Part shown: positions 634 to 43,012 of the stretch, in pieces
How positions within the stretch are numbered: the stretch's first letter is position 1
Layout of the letters: every line of letters starts with the position of its first letter
Origin: Gammaproteobacteria bacterium
Lineage (GTDB): Bacteria; Pseudomonadota; Gammaproteobacteria; Arenicellales; JAJDZL01
Direction: 5' to 3'
DNA length: 64,000 bases
NCBI GenBank assembly: GCA_022823405.1
Contig: JAJDXD010000095.1
Location: forward strand, 4,809-68,808
Made by a program: the position numbers and the translations under genes
Notes under the pieces: model-generated
Databases searched by the model: none
The model's input: the letters and a program-made list of their open reading frames with translations, nothing else
Told to the model about the DNA's origin: nothing

Positions 634-643
634 CAATTGCAAC

Positions 644-2188: not shown

Positions 2189-2220
2189 TGTTAATCCTGA
2201 CTAAATGTGAAAATCAAACC

Positions 2221-2252: not shown

Positions 2253-2294
2253 ATTCATCATTAGGGGGTATTTTTGAAAAAAGAGAGACCGCGC

Positions 2295-2363
2295 CTATAG
2301 GCGCAGCAGAAGCAGCCTGCTTGAGACTTGAATGGCGGAGAATTTAGTGGTTACGTTCGACAT
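2295..2363 (-). CDS. Putative leu leader peptide MSNVTTKFSAIQVSSRLLLLRL
   Basis: 22-codon ORF with CTG CTT CTG CTG CGC CTA just before the stop, ~105 bp upstream of leuA; the stop lies in the palindrome GCGCCTATAGGCGC. Confidence 0.7.
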   Translation of the reverse strand: MSNVTTKFSAIQVSSRLLLLRL

Positions 2364-2373
2364 TTGCACGAGA

Positions 2374-2402
2374 TTTATACATCATCGGGCAATGCAATGC
2401 AA
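2374..2402 (-). promoter_or_regulatory. Putative sigma70 promoter for leader peptide/leuA
   Basis: TTGCAT-N17-TATAAA on the minus strand, ending 10 bp before the leader ATG. Confidence 0.5.
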
Positions 2403-2444
2403 ATATTTTGAACTTTGAAACTTCATTGCGCCCGAAAGTTGTGC

Positions 2445-3245: not shown

Positions 3246-3354
3246 GAGTAGGTTCCTAGACCACTAGTTAGAAATTGTAACCGCTATTCCAAAACGAATC
3301 TGAAATTTGCCAAAATTTGTGAAATGCAACAGTGAGATTGATGTGATTTCAGAT

Positions 3355-3981: not shown

Positions 3982-3986
3982 GAAGG

Positions 3987-5015
<1,029 letters not shown>

Positions 5016-5020
5016 TTATT

Positions 5021-5548
5021 TCAATTGCTTTTTTTTGATTTATGACCATTGAGACTCAAGGAGCTTTCGCCTCTGGCAATGCCTGATACACCGGAGCGAA
5101 CCAATTCCAGAATCTCAGTAACCTTCAAAGTTTCAACAAAGGCATCCAATTTGGAACACTCTCCGGTAAGTTCGATGATATAGATTGATTCGGTTACGTC
5201 GATGATCCGTCCCCGAAATATTTCAGCCAGGCGTTTCACCTCATCTCGCAAATCGCCCGTCGCTCTTACTTTAACCATCATCAACTCACGTTCTATGTGA
5301 TTTCGATCAGCCAGATTGAGAACCTTGACGACTTCAATCAGTTTGTTGAGCTGTTTGGTGATCTGTTCGATGACACTTTCAGAACCTGTGGTGACGATCG
5401 TCATACGAGAAAGTGACGGATCGTCAGTTGGTGCAACTGTCAATGTCTCAATGTTGTAACCCCGCGCGGAAAACAGTCCGGCTACTCTGGATAAAGCACC
5501 TGACTCATTCTCCAAGAGCACGGAAATAATATGGCGATTCTCCTCCAC
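5021..5548 (-). CDS. ilvH: Acetolactate synthase small subunit
   Basis: RHIISVLLENESGALSRVAGLFSARGYNIE ACT domain; GTG start abuts the ilvI stop. Confidence 0.96.
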   Translation of the reverse strand: MEENRHIISVLLENESGALSRVAGLFSARGYNIETLTVAPTDDPSLSRMTIVTTGSESVIEQITKQLNKLIEVVKVLNLADRNHIERELMMVKVRATGDLRDEVKRLAEIFRGRIIDVTESIYIIELTGECSKLDAFVETLKVTEILELVRSGVSGIARGESSLSLNGHKSKKSN

Positions 5549-7291
5549 TTAGGCCAGCTCCCGTTCCTGTGGTGCGGGTTCCTCTGATTCCGCCTTCGGA
5601 CTTAAGTGCATCTCGTTATGGCCGCTTCCAGCAGCGATCATGGGGTAGACATTTTCTTCCTGATCCGTGATAAAGTCCATGAACACGAGGTCTTTTTTCC
5701 TCTTCATCGTCTCTCGCAATGCACCCTCAACATCCGCGGGATCATCAATACGAACGCCATCATGACCAAAACTTTTCGCCAGTGCAACGAAATCCGGTAA
5801 GGCATCCATGTATGAATGCGAATATCGGCGATCGTAAAAGAATTCCTGCCATTGCCTCACCATCCCCATATAACGATTATTCAGGTTGATGATTTTGATA
5901 GGAATATCGTACTGCTTACAGGTTGACAGCTCTTGAATGCACATGATGATGCTTGCTTCACCCGTGACACATACAACATCCGATTCCGGATAAGCCAAAT
6001 GCACGCCCATCGCTGCAGGCAGACCAAATCCCATCGTTCCCAGCCCACCAGAGTTCACCCACCTTCGCGGAGTATCGAAGCGATAAAACTGGGCTGCCCA
6101 CATCTGATGCTGTCCCACGTCAGATGTCACAAAAGCCTCACCATTGGTCACTTCATAAAGTTTTTCAAGCACATACTGTGGCTTGATTTTGCTGCTATTG
6201 CGATCGTATGACAGACTGTCAACCGAGCGCCAGGAATTGATCTGATTCCACCACGCTTTGAGTGCGTCGTAGTTTGGCTCCAGTTTCAACTTTTCAATGG
6301 TCGCCACCAGGTCCGCCAACACAAGTTTTGCGTCACCGACGATTGGGACTTCAACCTTAACATTCTTTCCAATTGAGGCCGGATCAATGTCAACATGAAT
6401 AATCTTCGCATAGGGTGCAAACTTATTTAGATCACCCGTGATTCGATCATCAAATCGAGCACCCACCGCCAACATCACATCACAGTCATGCATCGCCATA
6501 TTTGCTTCATAGGTCCCATGCATACCCAACATGCCAATGAACAGCGGATCATTGGCCGGAAAGCAGCCAAGACCCATCAGCGTATTCGTACACGGGTAAT
6601 CAAGCCGACGAACCAAACTGCGAAGTTCCTGTTCACCACCAGCAGTTGTAACGCCTCCACCGGTATAAATAATCGGACGCTTTGCGGATAAGAGCAGCTT
6701 GGCAGCTTTCTTTATCTGTCCCGAATGTCCTCGCAATGTGGGGTTGTAGGAACGCATTGAAACAGTCTCGGGATAGTGGTACTCAGCTAATGCTGCAGTC
6801 ACATCCTTGGGAATGTCGACCATCACCGGGCCTGGCTTGCCAGAGTTGGCAATGTAAAACGCCTTCTTGATGGTCAATGCAAGATCATTGACATCTCGCA
6901 CCAGAAAATTGTGTTTTACACAAGGTCGTGATACACCAAGTGCATCGACCTCCTGAAAGGCATCATCACCGATCAGGTGAGAAGGAACCTGGCCTGAAAT
7001 GACCACCATCGGAATCGAGTCCATGTATGCTGTTGCAATACCTGTGATGGTATTGGTTACACCAGGACCGGAAGTTACAAGTACAACGCCAGGTTCACCG
7101 GTTACACGAGCGTAACCGTCAGCTGCGTGGGAAGCACCCTGTTCGTGTCGCACAAGAATGTGACGAACCTCATCTTGTCTATACAGGGCATCGTAAATGT
7201 GCAGTGCTGCACCACCTGGGTATCCAAAAATGTACTTGACACCTTCATCTCGCAGGCAACGCACCAGAATATCTGCGCCTGTTAACTCCAT
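5549..7291 (-). CDS. ilvI: Acetolactate synthase large subunit
   Basis: FGYPGG, RHEQG, TSGPG, SDVGQHQMW, GGLGTMGFG. Confidence 0.97.
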   Translation of the reverse strand: MELTGADILVRCLRDEGVKYIFGYPGGAALHIYDALYRQDEVRHILVRHEQGASHAADGYARVTGEPGVVLVTSGPGVTNTITGIATAYMDSIPMVVISGQVPSHLIGDDAFQEVDALGVSRPCVKHNFLVRDVNDLALTIKKAFYIANSGKPGPVMVDIPKDVTAALAEYHYPETVSMRSYNPTLRGHSGQIKKAAKLLLSAKRPIIYTGGGVTTAGGEQELRSLVRRLDYPCTNTLMGLGCFPANDPLFIGMLGMHGTYEANMAMHDCDVMLAVGARFDDRITGDLNKFAPYAKIIHVDIDPASIGKNVKVEVPIVGDAKLVLADLVATIEKLKLEPNYDALKAWWNQINSWRSVDSLSYDRNSSKIKPQYVLEKLYEVTNGEAFVTSDVGQHQMWAAQFYRFDTPRRWVNSGGLGTMGFGLPAAMGVHLAYPESDVVCVTGEASIIMCIQELSTCKQYDIPIKIINLNNRYMGMVRQWQEFFYDRRYSHSYMDALPDFVALAKSFGHDGVRIDDPADVEGALRETMKRKKDLVFMDFITDQEENVYPMIAAGSGHNEMHLSPKAESEEPAPQERELA

Positions 7292-7471
7292 GGCCTGATT
7301 CCTCTTTATTGACCGGCTACCACATTTCCGGCTAGTTGATTGAATTAATTTTAATGAAACAAAGGATTATAGTGAGTGTGCAATGCAACATTGTAAATTC
7401 TTGTAATGCTTAATGTCACATGTCCGGTCAATCCCAGTTGATCTGGCTACCTATGTGCCTGTCGATCCGCT

Positions 7472-8881
7472 TCACAGTTTTCGCCACGTACTGGTACCGT
7501 CTGGACGATCCTCAAGTTCCACACCAAGAGCAGTCAGCTGTTGCCTTAACTCATCTGCGACCTGCCACTGTTTATTGCGGCGCGCTTCTTCGCGCTGAAG
7601 TACCAGCTCCCTAATACCAGCGGAATTCACAGAGAGTTCAACGCCCAAAAACCTGGATGCATTCATACACCCAATGCCCAAAGCACCGTTTAGAATCGAA
7701 AGCGTTTGGTACAGGCTCCCAGCTGTTGCTCCTGATTCAGTGTCTATCGCACGATTAAGGTCTCTGACGCAGTCAAAAATTACGGCCAACGCGTCCGGCG
7801 TATTGAAGTCGTCATCCATAACCGCCTGAAATCTTAAAAGATATTCATCATTCAATTGACTGGACGGTGAAATTCCGGATTGCTCGAACTTGCGAATTGC
7901 CAGGTAAATTCGCCGTAATGCAACGGTCGCATTTTTCAGTGAACTATCACTGTAGTTGAGTGGACTTCGATAATGACACATGAGGAAGATGAAGCGCAGA
8001 ACTTCACCCATTCTCACCGGATCCGTATCTTGAGCCAGAATTTCACGAATGGTCAGAAAATTGTGCAAAGACTTGGACATTTTTTCCGAATTCACTTCCA
8101 GATATCCGTTGTGCATCCAGACATTGACAAAGGTTTGATCAGTCGCTGCTTCAGATTGCGCAATTTCGTTTTCGTGATGCGGAAATAGCAGATCTCTGCC
8201 ACCTCCATGGATATCGAAGTGGCTACCCAGCAAACTGGTTGACATGGCCGAACATTCAATGTGCCATCCGGGCCTACCCTGTCCCCAAGGTGAATTCCAG
8301 CTTGGCTCACCCGGCTTGGAGCCTTTCCACAGCACAAAGTCCACTGGATCATTCTTCATTTCGTCGGGTGCAATTCGCGCTCCTACCACCAGATCATCGA
8401 GACGCGTTCCGGATAGTTTGCCATAGCCCTTGAATTGACGAGTACGGTAGTAAACATCGCCGTTTTCAGCCGGATATGCATAGCCGCGTTCAATCAACTC
8501 CGAAATCATCTCAATAATTTTCGGAATAAATTCGGTTGCACGAGGCTCATGATCAGGCTTGACTACGAATAGCGCATCGAGGTCTTCGTTCATGTACCGG
8601 ATGTATCGATCTGTCAGTGATTCGGTTGATACACCCAACTCGTTTGCACGATTTATGATCTTGTCATCAATATCGGTAATGTTGCGTACATAGGTAACCT
8701 CATACCCTCGGTACCGCAGGTAACGCACGATCGCATCAAAACCGACCATCACTCTTGCATGACCTAAATGACAGTAGTCGTAAACGGTCATTCCGCATAC
8801 GTAAATCCGTACGCGATTACCATCAATCGGCTTAAATTCTTCTTTTTGTCCAGTCAGACTGTTGTAGATTTGCAACATCAA
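7472..8881 (-). CDS. cysS: Cysteine--tRNA ligase
   Basis: YVCGMTVYDYCHLGH, WHIECSAM, KMSKS. Confidence 0.98.
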   Translation of the reverse strand: MMLQIYNSLTGQKEEFKPIDGNRVRIYVCGMTVYDYCHLGHARVMVGFDAIVRYLRYRGYEVTYVRNITDIDDKIINRANELGVSTESLTDRYIRYMNEDLDALFVVKPDHEPRATEFIPKIIEMISELIERGYAYPAENGDVYYRTRQFKGYGKLSGTRLDDLVVGARIAPDEMKNDPVDFVLWKGSKPGEPSWNSPWGQGRPGWHIECSAMSTSLLGSHFDIHGGGRDLLFPHHENEIAQSEAATDQTFVNVWMHNGYLEVNSEKMSKSLHNFLTIREILAQDTDPVRMGEVLRFIFLMCHYRSPLNYSDSSLKNATVALRRIYLAIRKFEQSGISPSSQLNDEYLLRFQAVMDDDFNTPDALAVIFDCVRDLNRAIDTESGATAGSLYQTLSILNGALGIGCMNASRFLGVELSVNSAGIRELVLQREEARRNKQWQVADELRQQLTALGVELEDRPDGTSTWRKL

Positions 8882-27287: not shown

Positions 27288-28208
27288 TTGGTTCATCAAT
27301 TCATGCATTCAAATTCCACTTTAGCCCCTAGTATTGCTATTGCCATGAGTGGCGCAATTTGGGGAGTTTACTGGATTCCTATTCGCAAGCTCAACGATAT
27401 CGGTGTAACTCCTTCATGGGCCTCTCTGATCACAATCGGGTTGACTGCGATATTCTTCGTATTCCTGTTTGCTCGGCAGTTTATCAAAACAGGTCGTATA
27501 CCCTGGCACGTACTCATTACTGGATTATTGACCGGAATGTGCATAATCTTTTATGCGGTTTCGCTGGTACTGACCGAGGTAATTAAAACTGTTCTGCTCT
27601 TTTATCTAACTCCGGTTTGGAGCACGATTCTAGATCGGGTGGTGTTCAAGGAACAAATATCACCCTACCGGATCGTCGCAGTAATTTCAGGCATATCTGG
27701 CCTTGCCGTAATCCTCGGCGTAGCCGAAGGCATTCCAAAAATATCAAACCTTGGTGACCTTCTGGCTTTATTGTCCGGCATCTTCTGGGCTTTTGCCATG
27801 ATACGCGTCCGAAACAACAACAAAGCGGCGGTATGGGAACAAGTCGGTGCTTTCTATATTGGCGGTACGATCTTTGCCGCCATTTTCATTTTGTTTCCCG
27901 TAGAGCCTAATGCGGTTACTCCTAGCCTGCCAACACTCCATGAAGCGCTGTTTTGGCTGATAATTTTCATCGCTGCGTATCTACCATCAATGTATCTAAT
28001 GTTTTGGGGTGCTCAGCGACTCCCACCAGCGCGGGTAGGAATACTCATGATGACTGAAATAGTTTTTGGTGTAACTTCAGCAGCTTTGTTGTCGGGCGAG
28101 CCTTTTGGCTTGAAGGAAATGATCGGCATCATATTAATTCTGAGCGCTGCAATTATCGACGTATCCGACCGGTATTCAACTACCAGATCAGCTAACCGGT
28201 TGGATTGA
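27288..28208 (+). CDS. DMT (EamA-like) transporter
   Basis: ~10 hydrophobic segments, GAIWG start and LLFYLTPVWS motif; ATG at 27303 is an alternative start. Confidence 0.9.
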   Translation: MVHQFMHSNSTLAPSIAIAMSGAIWGVYWIPIRKLNDIGVTPSWASLITIGLTAIFFVFLFARQFIKTGRIPWHVLITGLLTGMCIIFYAVSLVLTEVIKTVLLFYLTPVWSTILDRVVFKEQISPYRIVAVISGISGLAVILGVAEGIPKISNLGDLLALLSGIFWAFAMIRVRNNNKAAVWEQVGAFYIGGTIFAAIFILFPVEPNAVTPSLPTLHEALFWLIIFIAAYLPSMYLMFWGAQRLPPARVGILMMTEIVFGVTSAALLSGEPFGLKEMIGIILILSAAIIDVSDRYSTTRSANRLD

Positions 28209-28212
28209 CATA

Positions 28213-29592
28213 TTACTTGTGCTCGACAGCTGATTCTTGCAGCATTTTACAAAGCGATAGCAGCAGATCCTCATCACCTGGTTTTGCAATCGCAAATACA
28301 CAAATCGGCAGCCCTTCCTTTGTTATACCGACTGGTAAGTTTGCAGTTGGAAATCCACTGACTGCGGCGATGTTGCACATTGAAGCATAATCTTGCCAAC
28401 CTGCTGAATTGTCTCCCTCCTGCAAATTTGATGGAACAGCACCGTACTTGAATGGTACACAACCGGTAGCCGATACTATCAATACATCGTAGGATATGAA
28501 AAATTCCCGCAGAAGCAACCTAAGTCCGTAGATCCGCTTTTGAGCCTCGATGTACTCCTGAGCGGATGTGTGTGCACCCTGATCAATCCATTCCGATGTG
28601 ACCGGTCCAAACCCGTCCGAATTCTGCTGCTGTTGATTGCAATGACTCGCATGCAGATTGGCACACTGAATCGTTTTCCACGCATCAATTGACTCCCTGA
28701 TTGGTGGTCGTTTGTACACCACGTTGCAATCAGCCGATTTCAATAATTTTTCGATTCTGCTAATCGCACTTCGATGATCATCATCACATGGAGCATTCCA
28801 CAAGGCATTCGTAAGCGCAACTGACAAACCTCGATTCGGACGCTCAATTGCGGCCAGGTAGTCTACGACAGGCATTCTGGCACTTAAAGGATCCACCTCG
28901 GAGTGCCCTGCGACAATATTCATCAAGAATGCTGTGTCAGCGACATCCTGTGTAATCAATGCAACACTCGCGAACATCAACCCGCGCGAGTAGATGGGCG
29001 TATGGGCAATTCGACCATAGCTTGGGACCAGCGTAAACATTCCGTTAAATGCCGCAGGTAACAAAACATTGCCACCCACATCCATCGCAATCGCAGCAGC
29101 AGCGAAATTTTTGAGAGTGCCAACCATCGCGCCAGATGTACCGCCACCACTGACAAAGCCATCACCCCACGGAGATCGGCATATAAACCGGTCCGCCTCT
29201 TCTTCCAGTATCAAGCCCAACTCGGATGTGCTGGCCTTACCTGGAAATAGAGCTCCAGCATCTCTCAATCGTCGAACGACAATCGATTCGACATCCGGCA
29301 CGTGATCAAAATAAGCTTCACACCCATAACTGGTTCTCATATTTGCGACATCTATCAGGTCGTCGATCAAAATGGGAATTCCATGCAATGGCCCCCGTGC
29401 TTCACCAGACTGAAGCATCTGATCTGCAGTTTCAGCAAGCAGTCTGAAACTGGTCTCGGAAAAAGTGGTTATCGCTTGATAGTAACCATTGTGCTGATGA
29501 ATCTCAGCGATGTACTGTTCCGCAAGTTCTGCGATGTTGATTTCACGTGCTTCAACCAAACAGTTCAGTTCGCGAACGGTTTTATCGATCAC
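28213..29592 (-). CDS. Amidase-signature family protein lacking the catalytic triad
   Basis: Fold motifs kept (GPLHGIP, PSYGRI, SGFPTANLPVG, GLPI) but Lys->Asp77, cis-Ser->Gly151 and Ser nucleophile->Asn175; GTG start overlaps the betA stop. Confidence 0.88.
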   Translation of the reverse strand: MIDKTVRELNCLVEAREINIAELAEQYIAEIHQHNGYYQAITTFSETSFRLLAETADQMLQSGEARGPLHGIPILIDDLIDVANMRTSYGCEAYFDHVPDVESIVVRRLRDAGALFPGKASTSELGLILEEEADRFICRSPWGDGFVSGGGTSGAMVGTLKNFAAAAIAMDVGGNVLLPAAFNGMFTLVPSYGRIAHTPIYSRGLMFASVALITQDVADTAFLMNIVAGHSEVDPLSARMPVVDYLAAIERPNRGLSVALTNALWNAPCDDDHRSAISRIEKLLKSADCNVVYKRPPIRESIDAWKTIQCANLHASHCNQQQQNSDGFGPVTSEWIDQGAHTSAQEYIEAQKRIYGLRLLLREFFISYDVLIVSATGCVPFKYGAVPSNLQEGDNSAGWQDYASMCNIAAVSGFPTANLPVGITKEGLPICVFAIAKPGDEDLLLSLCKMLQESAVEHK

Positions 29593-31319: not shown

Positions 31320-32432
31320 TTACAAGACAAATTTAACCTGATCCAGTTTACCCCGACGCTCCAGTGCCAGCTCAATCAACCGATCAAGCAACTCGGCGTA
31401 TCCAATTCCACTCGCTTCCCACAGTTTTGGATACATGCTGATCGGAGTAAACCCGGGCATTGTATTGATTTCGCTGATATAGATATCAAAGCTGTCTCGA
31501 TCAACGAAAAAATCCACACGCGCCAACCCGGCAGCATCAATTGCCAAAAATGCCTCAATAGCATAGGCCTGAATTTTTCTGGTCACCTCTTCTGGAAGTT
31601 CTGCGGGAATGATTGAAGTTGAAACGCCATTAATGTACTTGTCCTCGTAGTCATAAAACTCACCACCTGGGACAATTTCGCCGACAACAGATGCCTGAGG
31701 ATCATCATTTCCAAGAATTGACACTTCGACTTCATGACAATGTTCCAAACCCTGCTCAACAATCAATTTGACATCGAACTCAGCAGCGTGGTCCATCGCC
31801 CATTTAAGCTCATCCCGAGTTTTGACTTTCGAAATTCCAACACTGGATCCCAGATTTGCCGGTTTGACAAACATTGGATAATTCAGATTTGATTCAATTT
31901 CGTCAACAACTGCCGTTCTGCTCGATTCCCATCTAGACTTCCGATAAACCCGATAGTCGGTCTGAGGAATATTTGTCGATGCAAAAACGGCTTTTGCGAC
32001 TGCCTTATCCATACCAACTGCAGACCCGGTCACACCAGATCCGACATAGGCAATCCCGGCAATTTCCATTAATCCCTGCACGGTACCGTCTTCTCCAAAC
32101 GGTCCATGTAACACTGGGAAGATGACATCAATATTTGACAGCGACGGAGTAACGTTCTCAGCAGAGTCGCGCATTACGATCTGGCCGGTGGTGGTGTAGT
32201 CGAGGCTGACCCCTGTTTTCCCTGCCGGGTTTACTTCTTTGGTTTTTAGCGCAGGTGCACTTTCGTCGGCTAGCAGCCACTCTCCCGTTTTAGCAATTCC
32301 GATCATGGTGATTTCGTACTTCCTGGAATCAAGGGCTTCACAGATGCAACGGGCAGAAGTAATGGAAACTTCGTGCTCACAGGACTTACCGCCATAGAGT
32401 AAGCCGATATGAATTTTGTTTTCGATGTTCAT
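31320..32432 (-). CDS. ddl: D-alanine--D-alanine ligase (DdlA type)
   Basis: YGGKSCEHEVS, LHGPFGEDG, KPANLGSSVG, omega loop FYDYEDKY, EINTMPG; start placed at ATG 32432 (track start 32501 overlaps the upstream gene). Confidence 0.95.
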   Translation of the reverse strand: MNIENKIHIGLLYGGKSCEHEVSITSARCICEALDSRKYEITMIGIAKTGEWLLADESAPALKTKEVNPAGKTGVSLDYTTTGQIVMRDSAENVTPSLSNIDVIFPVLHGPFGEDGTVQGLMEIAGIAYVGSGVTGSAVGMDKAVAKAVFASTNIPQTDYRVYRKSRWESSRTAVVDEIESNLNYPMFVKPANLGSSVGISKVKTRDELKWAMDHAAEFDVKLIVEQGLEHCHEVEVSILGNDDPQASVVGEIVPGGEFYDYEDKYINGVSTSIIPAELPEEVTRKIQAYAIEAFLAIDAAGLARVDFFVDRDSFDIYISEINTMPGFTPISMYPKLWEASGIGYAELLDRLIELALERRGKLDQVKFVL

Positions 32433-32463
32433 TTTTAGTGCGATTGGAGAGTATTGCCTTTCT

Positions 32464-33390
32464 TCAATCAATGAAGAAACTATTTGACGCATGGGTATCA
32501 AGATAACTCTCTATAGCATCTCGATAGATCCGTTGAATTTTTCGGGTTTGATCTCCTCCACCTCTCGGAAAATCAACAATTTTTCCATCATCCAGTTCCA
32601 AACAGTAAACCGGCATCACTTCACGGGTTGCACTGGTTACAAAGCATTCAGTGGCACTCTCGAGTTCGTCAACATGAACTGAACGTTCATATGCATTGAC
32701 TCCCTGTTCGGCACAACCATCCAAAACTGCTGCTTTGGTCAAGCCGCGTAAGTTTCCGGTTCCTGGTGTCACGATTTCATCATTGATAACAAACCATACG
32801 TTGCTGTTCGATGCTTCCGTCACATATCCTTCAGAATTCAGTATCAAGCTCTCATCTGCGCCTCTCTGTCGAGCTTGCATGATCGCGATGACATTATTGA
32901 GGTAATTTCCGCCCTTGATGTTTGGGTCAAGCGCATTGACAGGATTGCGTTTGACCTGTGGAATGGCCATTGTCATTCCAATGGAATAATGTTTCGGATT
33001 CCATATTGGAACTGATTTGACAATAATGACATATCGAGTCTGTAATTCCTTTGGTGGATGAAGGTCAATCGGTCCTTCTCCTCGCGTAATCTGGTATCGT
33101 ACGTATACGTTGTCTTCGGCAGACGCACCGGTAGCTCGTACAGTCCGCTTGATTTCCTGAGTCAATTCTTCGCGAGACTGGGATATCGTCATCTGTACGA
33201 GCTGTGCAGAGTTTTCCAACCGGTCGAAATGCGCTTCCATAAACAATGGAATACCGCGGTAGGTTCGAAAAACTTCATAGACTGAATCACCATACAGAAA
33301 CCCTCTATCCAATACCGGAATCGAGGCTTCGCTGGTCGGCATAATATTGCCGTCAATATTGGTCATCGTCGGTAGAGTGGTTTCAGACAT
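32464..33390 (-). CDS. Class IV PLP aminotransferase, D-amino-acid transaminase-like
   Basis: DRGFLYGDSVYEVFR, PLP lysine region IKGGNY, EASNSN, GLT, VTSATRE. Confidence 0.85.
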   Translation of the reverse strand: MSETTLPTMTNIDGNIMPTSEASIPVLDRGFLYGDSVYEVFRTYRGIPLFMEAHFDRLENSAQLVQMTISQSREELTQEIKRTVRATGASAEDNVYVRYQITRGEGPIDLHPPKELQTRYVIIVKSVPIWNPKHYSIGMTMAIPQVKRNPVNALDPNIKGGNYLNNVIAIMQARQRGADESLILNSEGYVTEASNSNVWFVINDEIVTPGTGNLRGLTKAAVLDGCAEQGVNAYERSVHVDELESATECFVTSATREVMPVYCLELDDGKIVDFPRGGGDQTRKIQRIYRDAIESYLDTHASNSFFID

Positions 33391-34124
33391 AGAGCTGCTC
33401 GGATCAGGTAATTGACTGTGATAAAAACAGGAAAATAAAGGTTATGCGGTGTGATGTCAAGTTGAACAAAACTTCGCCTAAGCGTTAGATATTCCGCTCC
33501 TTCCTAAATCTCGAATAGGTGACGCTTCTAGGGAATAGATTCATTCGAACTGCTCTCTGAGGAATGACGTGGAATTCAGCATCATTTTCTGGCAAATTAT
33601 TTGTTGATTCGATCGAGATAAACAATCATTTCATGACATCATCTCGACCTGTCATCATGGGTCAGAATTTCAAAATTCGCTTCGCAAATAATTATAAATC
33701 GCAAAAAGCGTTTGATTTGCAACGCTCTTCGTTTAACCGACAAATTCATCAACTAGCGAATAGTTGACAGCTTTAGCGAATCCGTTAAATTTCTGAGTTG
33801 TTTTTCAGTGGGTAAAGCAAAATGCAGAAGGAAAAATCCAATACCAAATCAAATTAGACTTCCGTCGTAGTCAATGCAACTGATGCTTGGGGAGATCACC
33901 TCGTACAAACAGCCAATTTCAATCCGTGTAGTTGGTACCAAATCGTAGAACTGTCATTGTGGTTGATAGTCAACAATTAAACAGCGTCAGTTTCGACAAT
34001 TTGGTGTTACTTATTGTCCAGCTTGTCTGATTGTTGAATCTACAGTTCGGTGTTGGAAAATTGACGATCCTCCCAATTGAACAACATGCCTCTGAACATG
34101 ATTAAGGCGAATCGGAAAGGGAAC

Positions 34125-34381: not shown

Positions 34382-35281
34382 CTAGTCTGTCCTGTGTCCC
34401 TTACATATTAAACATTCGCATCCCGCATCCGTGAAATGGCGAATTCCTACCGTTGTTCCGCGAATTCGGTCTGCGCGAGCATATATCTTGTTAAACAACA
34501 TGGTTTCTCCATTCTCTAGATATCGTCTCAGCGAGTAGCTGCAAAGGTCAGCGATTTGTACCATGCTAGTCAGTTGACTGTCGACGAACAACGGAGTTTC
34601 GTTGATTCTCTCAATCCTTGTCCAGAGTGTACCTTTCCGGAGAAATTCTCTCATAAGTTGCGTATGTTTTCTTTTGACGGTTTCGTTATTGTCATGAACG
34701 ACAAGTCCGTAATTTCTCTGACCATTTGAATCGCTCGTGTTCTGAAGGTATTGTTCGAATCTGGATATCACCTGTTCGAATGCCTGTTCATCTACCGGAG
34801 ATTGTGCGCGTTGAGGGTCAAAATGCAACTTGTCTACGCATTCTGCGAATAATCGAGCAAAACCCCAATTTGAGACACAGTCGGCAACCTGTGCAACAAA
34901 ATTTCGACGCTCTTCTAACGTCAGGTGGATGTACGCTTGAGTCTTTCTGTAGTTTTTCTTGACTTGTCCATAAGCTCGAACGTTGTTTGATTTTTGAAGC
35001 CGGAGGAGCTCTCTATTTCGATACCTGTGAACTTCTGACAACCGTTTTTCGCGGCTGAGTTTATTGAAGTTGTTAATGCGAGTTTGCTCCAAGTACTTTC
35101 TTAGTAACCACGCCGTGTGTATCTCTACTTCATCAAGCCCGTAACGCCGTTTAATGGCTGTGATTTCATAGTCCGCGCTCTTCCAGTGCCAGATCGGTAT
35201 CGAAATCCCGGCAAGAATGAAATGAGAAGTGTTACCCGGAATATCGGGCGTCCCAGATTCATCAACGTAACAAAGATACAT
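34382..35281 (-). CDS. DUF3800 family protein (predicted RNase H-like)
   Basis: N-terminal YVDESG, EIH, central HD and C-terminal QIAD (the DE plus QxxD signature of DUF3800); extra C-terminal H-x4-CxCxxC; ATG at 35281 (track TTG at 35284). Confidence 0.88.
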   Translation of the reverse strand: MYLCYVDESGTPDIPGNTSHFILAGISIPIWHWKSADYEITAIKRRYGLDEVEIHTAWLLRKYLEQTRINNFNKLSREKRLSEVHRYRNRELLRLQKSNNVRAYGQVKKNYRKTQAYIHLTLEERRNFVAQVADCVSNWGFARLFAECVDKLHFDPQRAQSPVDEQAFEQVISRFEQYLQNTSDSNGQRNYGLVVHDNNETVKRKHTQLMREFLRKGTLWTRIERINETPLFVDSQLTSMVQIADLCSYSLRRYLENGETMLFNKIYARADRIRGTTVGIRHFTDAGCECLICKGHRTD

Positions 35282-35299
35282 CAAGCCTTCTTTTCAGAC

Positions 35300-35370
35300 A
35301 AAAAAAAGCGACTGGGCTTTTAGGGCTTTAAGCCCTAAGACGAGACGCTTGGCGACTCATCCCAGACGCG
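35300..35370 (-). ncRNA. Putative structured small RNA linked to the DUF3800 gene
   Basis: Three stems (GCGuCUGG/CCAGuCGC; GAUGAGuCGC-caa-GCGuCUCGUC; UUAGGGCU-uaa-AGCCCUAA) followed by U8; a G-U pair favours the minus strand; begins where the upstream promoter would initiate. Confidence 0.65.
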
Positions 35371-35376
35371 AATTTA

Positions 35377-35405
35377 ATTTTAACGAAATACAATTCAATA
35401 GTCAA
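35377..35405 (-). promoter_or_regulatory. sigma70 promoter driving the RNA and DUF3800 gene
   Basis: TTGACT (35405-35400)-N17-TAAAAT (35382-35377); each hexamer is 5/6 consensus. Confidence 0.7.
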
Positions 35406-35962
35406 GTTGTTGTCCTCATTCATCAGTACTTATGAGACGAATCAGGCAGCCGGTGCAGGTAGATTGTGCTGATTAAGGTATTCCATGGGTGTGCGCTGAC
35501 GGAGTGCCTAGTGCGACCCTGGTAGAAGGCCGCCATCGAGCCTTTACCCGTTCCGAGTCGTCTTAAGTATGTTTAGGGGTATGTTGAACAACTACCGCGT
35601 TTGTCACGCGAAGTACGAGCGCATGAACCCGACAGAGCAGTTGAGGTCTTACCTTCTGAAGATACTTAATTGCAGAATGTAAAATAGGCATCGACCACAA
35701 CTGAACCAGATTTCGTATTTTGACAGGGAATACAGTCCGGTTATTGAACTGGAGTCTCAATAGACGGGATAGTTCTCGCTTGTTGGTGAATGATGGTATG
35801 CCATTTACCTTACTGCCGATCGGCTGCAATTCAGCGACATTGAACTTCACCACAGATTTTTCAAGTTGCAATTGCGATCAAATTGGCGATTTGATTCACT
35901 ATAACAAGACATGTTAACTTACTAAACTCACAAGTTTTCTCACTATTGAATTAGATGAACTC

Positions 35963-37441
35963 ATGGATCAGTCGTACCAATCAATTCGTATACCTACAGC
36001 ACTGGCTCTGACAGCGGGTGCTATACTCATGCTCGGCGTTGTGGCAAGTGCATTCGCTTCGTCAGCACAAACTTGCATGTTCAAGCCAATGAGCGACGAT
36101 GACAAGCCTTTTGGATTGGTCGTTGGCGCCGACATACTGCTACCCGAAGGAAAGATGGAGGACTATGGTATCCATATCCGATTTAACGGCAGTATTGGTG
36201 CAGTGGCGAAGTTTGACGAGTTACAAGCCGACTATCCTGATTCAGCTGTTCTCGACTGTCGCGGAAATGCTGTGCTCTCACCGGGATTCGTCAACGCCCA
36301 TGAACACCCAGCCTACAGTTATGCTTTTCCGGACAAGAATCTGAATCCGAACTATTTACACCGGGACGAATGGCGCCTCGGCGTGAATGACAAAGCCAGT
36401 CTTCCGATTCCCAAACGATACGAATTCCAGCCCAATGATTCAAAGCAGTCTGCTGCCCTAGTCTCCATGGAACTGCGCCATCTCATAGGAGGGGCAACCA
36501 CCATTGCGGGATCAGGTGGCGTACCGGGTGTCATTCGCAATGTCAATCTCCACAAAAGACTAGGCGATTCAGAGTTGTACGATGCCGAAGTAGAATCGGC
36601 AACATTTCCATTTTCATTTCGCGCCGTTGAGGAGCTCAAAGAGGAATGTTCAACCGGGACTCCCAAAAATCTGCCGTTGCGTATAGACAGCAACTTAAAC
36701 TTCATGGCTTACATTCCTCACGTAGGCGAAGGCCGATATTCGAGTTGTACCGCGCGGGCGGAAGTCACCCGGTACTTGCAGCACGTGCAGCTTCGTGACA
36801 GACGCTACTCTTTGATTCATGGAATCGCGACTGATGTCAGCGACTATGTATTGATGCAGAATTACGATGTGACCTTGGTATGGTCGCCGCGCTCCAATCT
36901 CGCTTTGTACGGGGAAACCATTGATATTGCTAGCGCCTTGGAGCAAGGCGTGAAAATCGCCCTGTCGACGGATTGGTCACCGAGCGGATCTTTCAATATG
37001 CGCGAAGAAGTGAAATGTGCCAAACACGCAGCGATAGAAGCCGGAATAGAGATTTCAAGCGAGATGCTGTGGCAAATGTCAACTATCAATGGCGCCTACG
37101 CATTGGGTTTAGAGGATCGGTTCGGCAAAATTAAATCCGGTTTGCCAGCTGACTTGATTCTTGTACAGCACAAAGAAGGCGACCCATACGACTCTGTTTT
37201 GACGGCAACTCACGAAGATATTCTGGCGGCTTGGGTTAACGGGCAAGTTATCCTGCTTTCCGAAATGCTGGATGACAGGTTGAGCAATCAGCAATGCTTA
37301 ATTTTGGATGGCGTGTCACCGAGAGTGTGCGGCGTACTTGAAAAATTCAATTTGTCGGAAATGGAGTTTCAGAATTCCGTCAAGGATATCGTGCCACTAG
37401 TCGATACCACTCGGCAAGCGCCTTGTGAGGTGCCGGGATGA
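35963..37441 (+). CDS. Secreted metal-dependent amidohydrolase (deaminase-like)
   Basis: Signal-peptide-like N-terminus; PGFVNAHEH, PHVGEG, IHG, STDWSPSGS, GKIKSGLPADL. Confidence 0.82.
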   Translation: MDQSYQSIRIPTALALTAGAILMLGVVASAFASSAQTCMFKPMSDDDKPFGLVVGADILLPEGKMEDYGIHIRFNGSIGAVAKFDELQADYPDSAVLDCRGNAVLSPGFVNAHEHPAYSYAFPDKNLNPNYLHRDEWRLGVNDKASLPIPKRYEFQPNDSKQSAALVSMELRHLIGGATTIAGSGGVPGVIRNVNLHKRLGDSELYDAEVESATFPFSFRAVEELKEECSTGTPKNLPLRIDSNLNFMAYIPHVGEGRYSSCTARAEVTRYLQHVQLRDRRYSLIHGIATDVSDYVLMQNYDVTLVWSPRSNLALYGETIDIASALEQGVKIALSTDWSPSGSFNMREEVKCAKHAAIEAGIEISSEMLWQMSTINGAYALGLEDRFGKIKSGLPADLILVQHKEGDPYDSVLTATHEDILAAWVNGQVILLSEMLDDRLSNQQCLILDGVSPRVCGVLEKFNLSEMEFQNSVKDIVPLVDTTRQAPCEVPG

Positions 37442-37897: not shown

Positions 37898-38896
37898 ATG
37901 AAACTTGAAAAACCGTACTTGATATTTGTTGGCGATGCTCACGATGAACTCGCGGCCAAAACTTCATTTGGAGTCGTTGACTGGTGTCCCGATGATTGCG
38001 TTGGACAGTTCAGGCTGCCTGGTTGCGCAGCAGATATGAAGCTCCCGGACCTCAGCATGGAAGAAGCCCAGCAGTGCGGCGTGCGCACCATCGTGATAGG
38101 CGTTGCTAACCGGGGCGGTGTGATACCTGATTCCTGGATAAAGCCACTGGTGAAAGCTTTGCGGAAGGGACTGTCGATAGCTAATGGTCTGCATACACCA
38201 CTCGACTCTATTCCTGAGATTGCGGAAGCTGCGCAAGCAAGTTCCGGCCAATTGATAGAAATAAGAAAACCTGTAGGAATTGATCACATTGCAACTGGCG
38301 AGCCTCGCGGGGGGCACAGACTGCTGACCGTTGGCACCGACTGTTCAGTCGGGAAGATGTATACCGCGCTTGCTCTGACAAAAGAAATGCAACAACGCGG
38401 AATGGATGCTGATTTTCGAGCCACGGGACAAACCGGTATCTTTATTGAAGGTTCTGGTGTACCAGTTGATGCTGTTATTGCTGACTTCATTTCCGGCTCG
38501 GTCGAAAAGCTTTGTCCGGCTGCGGACAGCGAACATTGGGATGTCATTGAGGGACAGGGTTCGCTGCATCATCCGTCTTTTGCTGGCGTCAGTCTCGGAC
38601 TTTTACATGGTGCACAGCCAGATGCACTTGTGCTGTGTCATGAACCAACACGTACCAATATGCGCGGACTACCTGACCGTCCGATACCAGACATTGCCGA
38701 AGCAATGGTGATGAATCTTGAGGCCGCCAGTATCGTACAGCCGAATGTCAAATTTGTAGGCATGTCTGTCAACACCAAGTACGTTCAGAATTCCGAACGG
38801 GAATCATTATTGAAATCGATGGAAGACAGATTTCAACTGCCGTGTGAAGACCCGTTCCTTACGGGTGGCAAGTCTATTGTTGATCAGTTGGACTAG
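37898..38896 (+). CDS. dgcN: DUF1611 family protein, DgcN-like N-acetyltransferase
   Basis: TVGTDCSVGKM, RATGQTG, DFISG, EGQGSL, GAQPD; directly upstream of a dipeptide-epimerase-type gene. Confidence 0.8.
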   Translation: MKLEKPYLIFVGDAHDELAAKTSFGVVDWCPDDCVGQFRLPGCAADMKLPDLSMEEAQQCGVRTIVIGVANRGGVIPDSWIKPLVKALRKGLSIANGLHTPLDSIPEIAEAAQASSGQLIEIRKPVGIDHIATGEPRGGHRLLTVGTDCSVGKMYTALALTKEMQQRGMDADFRATGQTGIFIEGSGVPVDAVIADFISGSVEKLCPAADSEHWDVIEGQGSLHHPSFAGVSLGLLHGAQPDALVLCHEPTRTNMRGLPDRPIPDIAEAMVMNLEAASIVQPNVKFVGMSVNTKYVQNSERESLLKSMEDRFQLPCEDPFLTGGKSIVDQLD

Positions 38897-38941
38897 CCGA
38901 ATCGTTTCTGATTTTTCACACACATTCTGGCTCGCACTTCA

Positions 38942-39919
38942 TTGATCATTTCTGCACATTCAGAATCCTGGCCTTTAAAAGGATCGTTTTCGATATCTAG
39001 AGGATCAAAAACCAGTGTTAATGTTGTCGTAGTTGAAATTAGTGATGGTTCAACCCGCGGGGTCGGCGAAGCAGTGCCCTACCCCAGATATAACCAGGGA
39101 GTTGAAGAAACGCTTGAGATAATTCAGAACATTGCATCCAGACACGGCAGTGAATTAACGCGCGATCTCCTCAGACAACAGTACCCACCAAATGCCGCAC
39201 GCAATGCACTTGACTGTGCGCTATGGGATTTTGAAGCAAAGAGAAACGCCACATCAGCTTGGAAAATGGCTGGTTTGTCGAAGCCGGTTCCAGTGACTGG
39301 GGCCTATTCATTGAGCCTTGAACCTCCTGAACAATTGGCAAAAAACGCCCAGGATGCCGTTGATTTTCCATTGCTCAAAGTCAAACTAGGGAAGGACCAA
39401 GTCGTCGAATCAGTTGCAGCAGTCCGAGATGCCCGTCCAGATGCCAGAATCATCCTGGATGCAAACGAAGCATGGGACACAAACGTATTGGAACGCGTTG
39501 TACCGGCCCTTAAACAATTAGAAGTTGAAATGATTGAACAACCACTTCCATCTGAAGTTGACGCAGCATTAGATGGTATTGAAAGTGAAATACCACTTTG
39601 CGCAGATGAGTCGTTTCATAATGTCAATGATTTGCAAAAACTGACCAGCCGCTATGAAATTTTCAATATCAAGTTGGACAAAACTGGTGGGCTTACTGAA
39701 GCCTTAATTCTCGCTGACAGAGTATTGGCCGAAGGCAAAAAGGTTATGGTAGGGAGCATGATGGCGACATCTTTGGGCCTGGCTCCAGCCATGCTGCTCA
39801 CTCACCGTGCTGCTTATGTCGATCTGGATTCGCCGGTATGGCTGGCTGAGGACCGTCAGAATTCGATCCGCTTTGAGGGTGGCATTTTGCAGCCACCTAA
39901 CCCCAATCTCTGGGGATAG
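38942..39919 (+). CDS. dgcA: Enolase-superfamily epimerase/racemase (DgcA / L-Ala-D/L-Glu epimerase-like)
   Basis: FSISRGSK, KVK, DANE, EQP, DES, NIKLDKTGG, DLD. Confidence 0.82.
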   Translation: MIISAHSESWPLKGSFSISRGSKTSVNVVVVEISDGSTRGVGEAVPYPRYNQGVEETLEIIQNIASRHGSELTRDLLRQQYPPNAARNALDCALWDFEAKRNATSAWKMAGLSKPVPVTGAYSLSLEPPEQLAKNAQDAVDFPLLKVKLGKDQVVESVAAVRDARPDARIILDANEAWDTNVLERVVPALKQLEVEMIEQPLPSEVDAALDGIESEIPLCADESFHNVNDLQKLTSRYEIFNIKLDKTGGLTEALILADRVLAEGKKVMVGSMMATSLGLAPAMLLTHRAAYVDLDSPVWLAEDRQNSIRFEGGILQPPNPNLWG

Positions 39920-39990
39920 AATTGTCAATTGACCGGTCAATGCTGTTTGATCGGCAGTAACAAACTCCTCGCAACCGTTCGGGATGATTT

Positions 39991-41394
39991 ATGGATTTAA
40001 GAAATCGATTTGAATGCGATATAGCGTTTCTTTCAGAGCAACTCTCAAGCGGTCAACTGACCAGTGAAGAGTTGGCGCGCTGCGCGATTGGCAACCACGA
40101 AACCTACGGAGCCACACTCAAGGCATACAAGTGTTTGCAGCCTGAAAAAGCACTTGAAATGGCTCGGTATTCGGACCAACTGCTTGCCAGTGGTGTGCCT
40201 TATCGAGCATTGCATGGCATCCCTGTTTCAGTGAAAGACATATATGGTTTGGAGGGCTATCCAATATTCGTGGGCAGCAGCAATGAACTGCCAGCTAAAT
40301 GGCAGCGCAGCGGTCCATTTGTAAGAAGCTTCGCTGCACAGAATGCTGTGTTCATCGGCAAAACGCACACGGTTGAGTTTGCATATGGAGGACTTGGTGT
40401 CAATAATCACTGGGGCACTCCAAAAAATCCCTGGGACTCAGAAAATCATCGCGTGCCTGGTGGCTCCAGCTCTGGGTCTGGCATCAGTCTTTGGGAAGGA
40501 TCGGCATGGGTTGCACTTGGTACAGATACGGCAGGTTCAGTCCGAGTACCTGCAAGTTTCACCGGGAATGTTGGACTGAAGACATCGCTCGGACACTGGT
40601 CAACAGAGGGTATCGTGCCGTTGAGCCCTACTTTGGATACTGCCGGATTTTCAACGCGAACCGTTGCAGATGCACAATTGGTCTTCCACGCCATCTCACA
40701 TTTGGAAGCCTACGAAAATGTGTATGCCCAGATAGTAGAACAAAATGAACGGGACCAACACATCAGATTTCGCATTGGAGTTGATGATGGTCTGATGTGG
40801 AGCGAATCGGAACCAGAAATTTCAGAAATCTGCCTGAACGCACTACGAGAACTCGAGAACGACAACTGTCAACTCGTACCCTTTGAATTCCCACAGGCTA
40901 AGCGTGCTGTCGATATGCGAAATCTAGGTGGGCCAGTCTCAGTAGAGCTCATTGAATTTCTAAATTCAGAGCTACCAGAGTGGTTTGATGCGCTTGACCC
41001 TGTAATCCGGCAAAGGATAAAAATGGGTGGGGACATTTCAGCGGTTGAATATCTGCGCCGAATACGTGAAATCAAAAGTTCCAGAAAGGAGGTGAAGGAG
41101 ATTTTTCACACCATAGACATCATCGCGAGTCCAACAGTTCCAATCTCCCCACCCCTGATGAGCGAAGTTTCGTCACCAGAAAATTACATGAAGAAAAACC
41201 TGCTTACTTTGCAAAATACCACTGTGGGAAGTTTTCTTGATCTTTGTGCCATAACTATTCCTGTCGGATTGGATAGTTTTGGAATGCCAGTAGGATTGCA
41301 GTTCATGACTCGTGCTGGAAGTGAATTGTTTTTGTTGGCACTCGGACTTCGAATCGAAAAAATTGTTCGCGATCAACAGCGAATGCCATTTTGA
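39991..41394 (+). CDS. Amidase-signature enzyme with intact triad
   Basis: Lys82 (VSVKD), cis-Ser159 (PGGSSSGS), Ser183 (GTDTAGSVRVP). Confidence 0.92.
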   Translation: MDLRNRFECDIAFLSEQLSSGQLTSEELARCAIGNHETYGATLKAYKCLQPEKALEMARYSDQLLASGVPYRALHGIPVSVKDIYGLEGYPIFVGSSNELPAKWQRSGPFVRSFAAQNAVFIGKTHTVEFAYGGLGVNNHWGTPKNPWDSENHRVPGGSSSGSGISLWEGSAWVALGTDTAGSVRVPASFTGNVGLKTSLGHWSTEGIVPLSPTLDTAGFSTRTVADAQLVFHAISHLEAYENVYAQIVEQNERDQHIRFRIGVDDGLMWSESEPEISEICLNALRELENDNCQLVPFEFPQAKRAVDMRNLGGPVSVELIEFLNSELPEWFDALDPVIRQRIKMGGDISAVEYLRRIREIKSSRKEVKEIFHTIDIIASPTVPISPPLMSEVSSPENYMKKNLLTLQNTTVGSFLDLCAITIPVGLDSFGMPVGLQFMTRAGSELFLLALGLRIEKIVRDQQRMPF

Positions 41395-41412: not shown

Positions 41413-41904
41413 GTGAATTTCAGTGAGCCATTATTATTGCATGAAGATCGGGTGCGCGCGGAGTGGGTCGATGAATTTGATCATATGAATCTCGCATTTT
41501 ACGTGGCAGTCTGCGACTGGGGTTCGTACAAGTTCTGGGAACTGGCAAATGACGGCCGCAAACTAGAACAAAGAGATGGCATGGAGTATGCCATCGTTGA
41601 AACCCATGTGAACTATATTCGTGAAGTACGACTGGATGATGAGTTAATCGTTGAGTCACAACTGCTGGGATTTGACGAGAAACGTTTTCATCTTTTCCAC
41701 ACTCTACGACACGCGCAACAGGGTTTCGTTTCCGCAACCAACGAAGTGATGGGGTTGGGTTTCAGTCTCAATGCTCGGGGCATTCAACCTTTTGCCAGCC
41801 AAGTCCAGAAAAAGCTGGCAGAAATCTACGAAGGTCAAAAAACCCTTCCTAGGCCCGCAAACGCAGGGAGGTCGATTGCACTACCTGCTAAGAAGTCGAT
41901 CTAA
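41413..41904 (+). CDS. Hotdog-fold thioesterase family protein
   Basis: RVRAEWVDEFDHMN, VETHVNYIREV, DEKRFHLFH. Confidence 0.85.
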   Translation: MNFSEPLLLHEDRVRAEWVDEFDHMNLAFYVAVCDWGSYKFWELANDGRKLEQRDGMEYAIVETHVNYIREVRLDDELIVESQLLGFDEKRFHLFHTLRHAQQGFVSATNEVMGLGFSLNARGIQPFASQVQKKLAEIYEGQKTLPRPANAGRSIALPAKKSI

Positions 41905-42043
41905 TGCTGGAAATTTGCTAGCTGCGTTGAAATTTGCCATTCGCAAGATTCGTGCTGACTCTAGTCGCAGTAGTGGTAGGAAGAAGTCGCTACAATTACA
42001 CTGATCAGGATTCAAAAACATTCTCCTGTATCAGAATATCTGA

Positions 42044-43012
42044 TTAAACCCGATCCCGTTTGAGTGGCTGTGCCATACAGTGAACGCCACCACCCGCGTC
42101 AGTAAACATTGTCATAACGGGGTCGAAGACTTCAAATCCCATCGCTCGCAGTTTACCATTTAGATTTTGGGCCGCTGCTGTTGAGACCACGCGATCATTA
42201 CCCAACGCAACCACATTACAAGCCAGATTCATCGTATCGCGAAAGCTGACAGGAATCATCTCGATGTTTTTTGACTTAAGCCACTTCAGTACATCATCGG
42301 GTGTTGTGTCCAGGCACACAGCAGCACACTTTTCAGCTAGCATACAAACCATCAGGTCAATGTGCACATAGAATTCATCAATGGGTGCATATTTCACTTC
42401 CCAGCCTTCTTTCTCCATCCAACCGCCAACCTGTTTGGCTGAACGCTCTTCAGAGCGGTGATCTGTGTATCCGATCATTACTGCGCCTGGCTCAATGATG
42501 TTGAAATCGCCCCCTTCAAAGTTTCCTGCACTCACCAAATCGTAAATTGGAATTCCGTTTGAAAGGTAAAAACGAAGTACTGCGGCATACTCGCCCCGCC
42601 GCCTGGGATTCGCCAACTGACAAACTACCGCTCCAAATGGAGTCATGAAATTTGAATCACGCGAATAAACTTGATACGGAGTGTCTTCATCAGGTTGCAG
42701 AGTGTGCACAGCGACTCCGGCAGTCTGATAAGCATCGACTAATTCTTCATGCTGACGAATCGCAACATCTCGATCGAATGCCAGGCCATCGCGGTCCGAG
42801 GCGCGGCAGATCGAGCTGTACTCAAGATTCTCTTCACCCATCCAGCGAAAGCACTCTGGTGAACCTAAAAGAACATCACGCAGAACGCCATATTCTGAAT
42901 TCACACCCCAATCCCTGAGCTCAGGGGTTGATCCACCTTCTCTTCTTGCTCTCAAAATGTCAGTTTTGGGAACGGATAGATCCGCTTCAGCATGTAATAT
43001 TTCCTTCTTCAT
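42044..43012 (-). CDS. Amidinotransferase / dimethylargininase family protein
   Basis: NSEYGVL, YSRD, FEGGD, HID and C-terminal GGGVHCM catalytic Cys. Confidence 0.88.
   Translation of the reverse strand: MKKEILHAEADLSVPKTDILRARREGGSTPELRDWGVNSEYGVLRDVLLGSPECFRWMGEENLEYSSICRASDRDGLAFDRDVAIRQHEELVDAYQTAGVAVHTLQPDEDTPYQVYSRDSNFMTPFGAVVCQLANPRRRGEYAAVLRFYLSNGIPIYDLVSAGNFEGGDFNIIEPGAVMIGYTDHRSEERSAKQVGGWMEKEGWEVKYAPIDEFYVHIDLMVCMLAEKCAAVCLDTTPDDVLKWLKSKNIEMIPVSFRDTMNLACNVVALGNDRVVSTAAAQNLNGKLRAMGFEVFDPVMTMFTDAGGGVHCMAQPLKRDRV

Follow-up and report, generated by a model that had tools for sequence, protein, structure and literature searches.

The 64,000-nucleotide stretch of contig JAJDXD010000095.1 analysed here (the window) comes from a gammaproteobacterium of the order Arenicellales. 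It carries a gene, which we call pAmi, whose product has the full-length fold of the amidase-signature (AS) enzymes, and in this protein all three residues of the Ser-cisSer-Lys catalytic triad are replaced. We found that the replacing residues (Asp77, Gly151 and Asn175) are fixed in a whole clade of orthologues, that the gene is under purifying selection, that it lies directly behind the gene of a BetA-type GMC flavoprotein, to which it is coupled by a stop/start overlap, and that it is dispensable, as some relatives do without it. The reading towards which we lean, though tentatively, is that pAmi is a re-tooled, non-hydrolytic ligand-binding pocket which acts as an optional aid in the GMC step.

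An amidase fold with a replaced triad

The pAmi open reading frame is read from 29592 to 28213, starts with GTG and encodes 459 amino acids with no internal stop. The original prediction had thus placed the gene correctly and had been right about its open frame; the strand, which it did not state, is the minus one. The protein matches the Pfam family PF01425 (Amidase) over profile positions 1-445 of 445, with 211.8 bits against a cut-off of 27 (E-value 2.5e-62); this domain takes up residues 22-445, and Pfam gives no further one. In HMMER searches, 56 distinct solved AS sequences from the PDB match pAmi at E<=1e-3. An AlphaFold2 model built from 25 orthologues (mean pLDDT 83, pTM 0.89) resembles GatA, NylA, aryl acylamidase and biuret hydrolase at TM 0.81-0.86 in Foldseek, with GatA as the top structural match (TM 0.86). 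At the same time, pAmi stays far under the cut-off of every NCBIfam amidase model (best 201 against 506). By structure it belongs to the AS superfamily, but it does not satisfy the catalytic definition of that superfamily.

In HMMER alignments, Asp77, Gly151 and Asn175 of pAmi stand opposite the Lys, Ser and Ser of GatA structures, and the distance between Gly151 and Asn175 is 24 residues, which is the canonical one. Both the threefold replacement and the retained spacing had been proposed from the letters of the window, and these alignments bear them out. As aligned, the Lys and the nucleophile Ser of the triad are unambiguously gone. Around the cis-Ser position, the residue after Gly151 varies between Thr, Ala, Ser and Cys among orthologues (GGG[TASC]SG, the window having GGGTSG); about half of the orthologues have GGGSSG, which contains a GGSSG string shifted by one residue, and Ser153 is invariant in the 25 core members of the clade. 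It is conceivable that a Ser still lies structurally near the cis-Ser position of pAmi.

Other parts of the signature are retained, namely the conserved Asp after the Lys position (Asp78), the D171-x-G-G loop and many structural glycines and prolines. In AS enzymes the D-x-G-G loop forms the oxyanion hole. Catalysis depends there on both the Lys and the nucleophile Ser, whose loss abolishes activity in the enzymes studied. Because these two residues are essential, canonical AS hydrolysis should be gone in pAmi. The malonamidase E2 (MAE2) mutant structures K62A, S131A and S155C were among its structure matches. As the change from Lys to Asp next to Asp78 reverses the charge, the site is predicted to be acidic. 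In comparison with canonical AS enzymes (GatA, peptide amidase PAM, malonamidase E2, NylA and aryl acylamidase), pAmi thus has the same full-length fold and signature region, but Lys is changed to Asp, cis-Ser to Gly, the nucleophile Ser to Asn and the following Arg to Leu, and all these changes are fixed.

We found about 30 orthologues of pAmi, at 36–92% identity, all of them from one Arenicellales family. A search of 5.8 billion clustered proteins gave 26 clusters at 46-100% identity (453-1045 bits), after which the scores fell to at most 188 bits, the level of ordinary amidases. Five more divergent members (P0123-P0127, 369-488 bits) came from a profile search of 1.84 billion representatives, and among the best 150 matches of that search there was no triad-less AS protein beyond the pAmi clade. 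The changes of Lys to Asp and of the nucleophile Ser to Asn are present in every clade member, and Asp77, Gly151 and Asn175 are among the only 30 of 459 columns which are invariant in a 30-sequence alignment reaching down to 36% identity. The triad was kept exactly in 234 of the 236 nearest AS homologues outside the clade; its loss in pAmi lies far from chance. The nearest active relatives (P0128-P0130, 274-290 bits) have several clade motifs in common with pAmi and keep the triad, and the closest of them, P0128, lies in an unrelated gene context. An unrelated AS homologue in the representative library, P0249, has Pro in place of the Lys and Gly in place of the cis-Ser (GVPSIIPDV, GGGGGG) and retains the nucleophile Ser; it is possibly another AS pseudoenzyme.

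The ratio of nonsynonymous to synonymous substitution rates (dN/dS, or omega) was calculated by Nei-Gojobori pairwise counting in four independent subclades with dS of 0.12-0.60, dS being saturated in two divergent genera. It was 0.19, 0.25, 0.16 and 0.20 for pAmi; in the same comparison, the GMC gene gave 0.06-0.16 and an active AS amidase encoded in the same cluster gave 0.10-0.16. Within pAmi, omega was 0.158 for residues 60-200 (the former active-site core), 0.155 for the C-terminal part and 0.25-0.29 elsewhere. None of the 20 genomes has an internal stop in the gene. It needs to be added that pAmi is the fastest-evolving gene of the cluster, with 46-92% identity between orthologues versus 69-97% for GMC. 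The gene is under purifying selection, and the constraint is centred on the re-tooled site. Since the residues that replace the triad do not vary and no part is more constrained than the core, we infer that selection keeps the pocket itself.

An early pseudogene, which had been named as the outcome that would speak against a selected protein, is ruled out by dN/dS values far below 1, by the intact frames and by the invariant replacement residues. The orthologues with the same Asp/Gly/Asn residues and the same linkage to betA, for which a search had been proposed, do exist, all within one family, and together with the dN/dS values and the invariance of the replacements they support the view of a selected, non-hydrolytic protein. 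Having homology to an enzyme family, lost key catalytic residues and purifying selection, pAmi would fit the notion of a pseudoenzyme.

Linkage to a BetA-type flavoprotein

The GMC protein encoded upstream of pAmi scores 801 bits against the NCBIfam betA equivalog TIGR01810, whose cut-off is 732.1. It is the one GMC protein out of five paralogues of the genome that passes this cut-off, the other four scoring 553-663. It also holds the conserved motifs YHPSCTCKMG and GNLNA, in which the catalytic His and Asn of GMC enzymes lie. The original prediction called it a choline dehydrogenase. This name stands as a label at the level of the hidden Markov model, but the gene context gives it no support: no bet genes (betB, betI or betT) adjoin the GMC gene, whose neighbours are a D-Ala-D-Ala ligase (Ddl), a class IV aminotransferase, pAmi and an EamA-family transporter, and no betB equivalog above its cut-off was found in five genomes (best betaine aldehyde dehydrogenase 566 against 668.6). 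On one hand, the gene upstream of pAmi passes the BetA equivalog model, as in betIBA loci. On the other hand, and unlike in those loci, it has the only Ddl of the genome on one side and pAmi on the other, an order seen only in one Arenicellales family. Our search of the literature on Arenicellales and choline yielded nothing specific.

The start codon of pAmi overlaps the stop codon of the GMC gene in the tetranucleotide GTGA, as had been read from the window, and this junction looks to be of the termination-reinitiation type. An NTGA overlap is retained at 17 of 24 orthologous loci, while the remaining ones have a gap of at most 13 nucleotides or a one-nucleotide overlap; one distant genus has a gap of 63 nucleotides. 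At every locus examined, divergent metagenomic ones included, pAmi follows immediately on the 3' side of the GMC orthologue.

Each of the 27 family genomes sampled has a GMC orthologue of at least 67% identity, and such orthologues are absent from the other families of the order. The closest homologues outside the family, at 56-63% identity, do not lie beside Ddl, aminotransferase or amidase genes. The five that were examined have varied contexts, and one of them is beside a GbdR-type regulator and a gamma-butyrobetaine-hydroxylase-like gene, neighbours which would be consistent with cationic amine substrates for GMC. We also looked among these closest homologues for an ancestral order outside the family, in which an active amidase gene would follow the GMC gene, and did not find it. 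In the window's own genome, contig C76 (positions 372-7761) carries a GMC paralogue (45% identical to P0002) together with TRAP transporter genes and an AS amidase which has the Lys, GGSSSG and the nucleophile Ser; GMC and amidase are therefore a recurring pairing in this genome.

The genomic matches of pAmi are all metagenome-assembled genomes labelled Arenicellales or Gammaproteobacteria (uncultured, marine). Among 151 sampled genomes of the order, pAmi was present in 20, all from one GTDB family: 18 belong to the genus of the window, of which 23 genomes were sampled, and two sister genera contribute one each. At a sister-genus locus (L047:3104-7191, G083), about 4.5 kb including a TRAP DctM gene lie between Ddl and GMC, and pAmi is absent.

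Possible roles of the altered pocket

In the ligand-binding reading, pAmi would have descended from an active AS enzyme, Ser-cisSer-Lys hydrolysis being lost and Asp77-Gly151-Asn175 becoming fixed in the common ancestor of one Arenicellales family. The AS fold, the oxyanion-hole loop (D171-x-G-G) and the signature core have remained the most constrained parts, and for this reason selection would act on the re-tooled pocket rather than on a surface alone. The protein would be made from the same mRNA as the BetA-type GMC protein, by reinitiation at the stop/start overlap, and it would bind a small molecule without cleaving it. Because the Asp in place of Lys next to Asp78 should make the pocket acidic, a cationic amine-carbonyl compound, for example the GMC substrate or its aldehyde product, is a candidate ligand, which pAmi might sequester, hand over or sense as an optional accessory to GMC oxidation. 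The family of BetA-type enzymes handles cationic amino alcohols, and as pAmi would be co-translated with such an enzyme, a ligand-binding accessory seems to be the most economical reading. While non-covalent binding is something that we infer, the identity of the ligand and any physical contact between pAmi and GMC are speculative. Three roles had been put forward in the original prediction (ligand sensor, scaffold for BetA and partner of the active amidase); a ligand sensor or binder would fit the pocket-centred constraint best and remains open. That the fixed Asp-Gly-Asn forms a new functional centre, either for a new, nucleophile-free catalytic chemistry or as a pocket dedicated to carrying or sensing the cationic amine or aldehyde that the BetA-type flavoenzyme handles, we regard as possible, if rather doubtful.

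Several observations weigh against the ligand-binding reading. Seven of 27 family genomes keep the aminotransferase, Ddl and GMC genes and have no pAmi anywhere; in two pAmi-less genomes only about 100 nucleotides lie between GMC and EamA. On a maximum-likelihood tree of GMC proteins, at least 4-5 independent changes between presence and absence are required. Between two loci with 94% identical flanks (L050:6022-7971 and L046:4996-5219), a 1.9-kb segment with pAmi and a short BKACE-like open reading frame in the first is replaced by 223 bp in the second, and this difference is a clean recent deletion. In two sister genera pAmi is degenerate, with loop deletions and an eroded glycine loop, the Asp and the Asn being kept. 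Columns invariant in pAmi-containing genomes were scored in pAmi-less ones, with Ddl and aminotransferase as control genes; 2 of 218 such columns were changed in GMC, 5 of 112 in Ddl and 3 of 135 in the aminotransferase. The constraint on GMC is thus not released after the loss of pAmi, which argues against a large obligate interface. Given the repeated loss and the lack of a footprint on GMC, pAmi is dispensable, and this is why the accessory is described here as optional. Moreover, a new catalytic site would account just as well for the invariance of the replacing residues.

This last point leads to the alternative that survives best, in which the oxyanion hole is kept and Asp77, with Asn175, catalyses a different, non-covalent reaction as the next, optional step of the pathway, such as water activation on an ester, imine or aldehyde-derived intermediate from GMC. 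We consider such a re-tooled enzyme unlikely, but worth serious attention. It would explain why the replacement residues do not vary over about 30 sequences and why the former active-site core, with its retained D171-x-G-G loop, is under the tightest constraint. The largely clade-specific motifs LWNAPxDD, RPPIR and GCVPFxYGxxPSN fall in parts of the protein which determine specificity in AS enzymes. Consecutive steps typically show the arrangement of pAmi, a last operon gene coupled to the enzyme before it, enzymes of optional branches are often lost, as pAmi was, and the operon of GMC, TRAP and active amidase genes in the same genome shows that GMC and amidase chemistry can co-occur. However, we know of no AS-family member that functions without the Ser nucleophile and the Lys, the omega of pAmi is about twice that of the active amidase, and the loop deletions in two genera, together with the repeated loss, look more like a pseudoenzyme.

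It is improbable that pAmi is instead a bound, non-catalytic subunit of GMC, which would stabilise, solubilise or anchor the dehydrogenase at a ratio fixed through translational coupling. The strict adjacency and the conserved stop/start overlap would agree with this, and two conserved segments modelled with low confidence could become ordered on a partner: residues 83-100, a candidate lid or interface, and residues 378-396, whose motif CVPFxYGxxPSN sits at a short insertion which most canonical AS enzymes lack. The hetero-complexes GatCAB and AtzE-AtzG are among the top structural matches (PDB 4wj3, 3h0l, 6c62 and 6c6g), and in them an AS protein works with a partner encoded beside it, as might hold for pAmi; yet their AS subunits are catalytically active and have GatC-like proteins or GatB as partners, whereas the putative partner of pAmi is a GMC oxidoreductase. 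The strongest constraint on pAmi falls, as far as the sequence tells, on the buried signature core, which speaks against a subunit. An obligate subunit is further weakened by the seven genomes in which GMC persists alone and by the two released GMC columns, fewer than in the controls, and the proposed scaffold for BetA, if meant as an obligate one, is disfavoured on the same grounds.

Less probable still is a vestigial relic with little function of its own, persisting through weak selection, for example on a folding or expression effect on the operon. The fast evolution of pAmi, its recurrent independent losses and its degenerate forms in two genera would be expected of such a relic; not so its omega of 0.16-0.25 in four subclades with dS up to 0.6, the lack of any stop or frameshift in the 20 genomes, the invariance of the replacement residues down to 36% identity and the concentration of constraint in the core.

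Very improbable, finally, is a heteromer with the active amidase, or a mimic of GatA which binds GatB/GatC in the manner of Tse8, a Pseudomonas aeruginosa AS-fold effector of the type VI secretion system that acts through binding, in the place of GatA, with no need for amidase catalysis (bioRxiv 10.1101/733030): GatA is indeed the top structural match and an active amidase is encoded in the same conserved cluster, but this amidase is found in 14 of 14 genomes whether or not pAmi is present (the phyletic pattern on which we rejected the proposed partnership), is only about 20% identical to pAmi and belongs to a divergent operon, the likeness to GatA is one that many AS enzymes show through the common fold (TM 0.8-0.86), a gatBC context is absent, and no type VI secretion or immunity genes lie beside pAmi in the window or at more than 30 orthologous loci. 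Tse8 itself, with its full triad, is secreted as a toxin against GatCAB and has a cognate immunity protein, while pAmi has no triad and is tied to a GMC flavoprotein.

Returning to a re-used, non-hydrolytic pocket, some likeness exists to the plant import receptors Toc64 and mtOM64, which keep an AS domain without amidase activity. Toc64 is eukaryotic, membrane-anchored, fused to TPR repeats and altered by a single nucleophile substitution; pAmi, by contrast, is bacterial, has lost all three triad residues to replacement and consists of the AS domain alone, with no TPR or membrane-anchor domain by Pfam. Toc64 is listed among the members of the AS family (PMC8393822). Full-text searches on inactive or non-catalytic AS proteins gave no bacterial AS family in which fixed alternatives replace the three residues. 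To our knowledge, no triad-less bacterial AS family tied to a GMC flavoprotein has been known.

Pseudoenzymes are common, but bacterial examples with the amidase signature have barely been described. If the carrier or sensor reading is true, pAmi would be the first AS-fold partner of a GMC oxidoreductase. Its invariant replacements and the constraint on the old active site make it a clean natural experiment in the re-use of a serine-hydrolase pocket. As the protein is small, soluble-looking and easily co-expressed with GMC, a decision between binding and catalysis could be reached quickly, and the recurrent natural deletions offer ready comparison genomes. The gene is real, clean and testable, and it is confined to one uncultured family.

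The operon and the surrounding cluster

The operon has a conserved order: class IV aminotransferase, Ddl, GMC and pAmi. The positions of these genes and of the other features are collected in Table 1.

Table 1. Features of the window around pAmi (positions of the whole stretch)
Feature	Position	Strand	Remarks
EamA-family transporter	27288..28208	+	Convergent with pAmi; conserved neighbour
pAmi (amidase-signature-fold protein)	28213..29592	-	459 amino acids; triad absent: D77/G151/N175
Residues 378-396 of pAmi (CVPFxYGxxPSN)	28405..28461	-	Conserved, largely clade-specific; low AlphaFold2 confidence
Asn175, codon AAT, nucleophile Ser position	29068..29070	-	Motif DVGGNV; invariant in 30/30 sequences
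Gly151, codon GGT, cis-Ser position	29140..29142	-	Loop GGGTSG; invariant in 30/30 sequences
Residues 83-100 of pAmi (ANMRTSYGC...VP)	29293..29346	-	Conservation 0.75, several invariant columns; pLDDT <50
Asp77, codon GAC, catalytic Lys position	29362..29364	-	Motif GIPILIDD; invariant in 30/30 clade sequences
GTGA start/stop overlap, GMC/pAmi	29589..29592	-	GCG-TGA / GTG-ATC
BetA-type GMC flavoprotein, 560 amino acids	29589..31271	-	Directly upstream of pAmi; TIGR01810 801 bits, NF002550 877 bits
D-Ala-D-Ala ligase (Ddl)	31320..32501	-	Only strong Ddl of each genome examined
Class IV aminotransferase (D-amino-acid / branched-chain type)	32464..33390	-	First operon gene; Pfam Aminotran_4 3e-51; NCBIfam matches all under cut-offs
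Promoter-like TTGACA-17-TATTTT	33432..33460	-	Upstream of aminotransferase; consensus match only; regional site count not above shuffled expectation
Second cluster half: DUF1611 (DgcN-like), MR_MLE (DgcA-like), active AS amidase	37898..41394	+	Amidase K82/S159/S183

In 11 genomes, some of which are complete, no strong Ddl other than that of this operon is present, and the enzyme thus serves as the housekeeping one; an alanine racemase gene is located elsewhere in the genome. As the orthologues have 367-370 amino acids, the true start of Ddl probably lies downstream of the listed TTG. The placement of Ddl between the aminotransferase and the BetA-like GMC is family-wide and was not seen in the other Arenicellales families sampled. 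It links cell-wall precursor genes to a choline-dehydrogenase-type enzyme.

On the other side of pAmi, its stop codon and that of the EamA gene are four nucleotides apart (28208-28213), which leaves no room for a terminator between them. The two transcripts would overlap unless termination falls inside the opposite gene.

The active amidase of the second cluster half (39991-41394) keeps the full triad, and in this the original prediction, which had used it as an internal control, was confirmed. In most relatives the two halves of the cluster are directly divergent, while in the window a DUF3800 gene and a gene for a 492-amino-acid amidohydrolase (34382-37441) split them. The close relatives L005, L006 and L008 have neither gene, and L007 has the amidohydrolase only, a pattern suggesting that the divergent promoter region received insertions recently. 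Beyond the active amidase gene, positions 41413-43012 hold a gene for a 4HBT_2 thioesterase on the plus strand, and then a convergent DDAH / arginine-deiminase-fold gene on the minus strand.

One chromosome-level metagenome-assembled genome (OY762925.1) holds two near-identical copies of the whole cluster, L019 at 10441-31805 and L021 at 3640129-3661493, with a GMC distance of 0.004; the pair reflects either a segmental duplication of recent date or an artefact of assembly.

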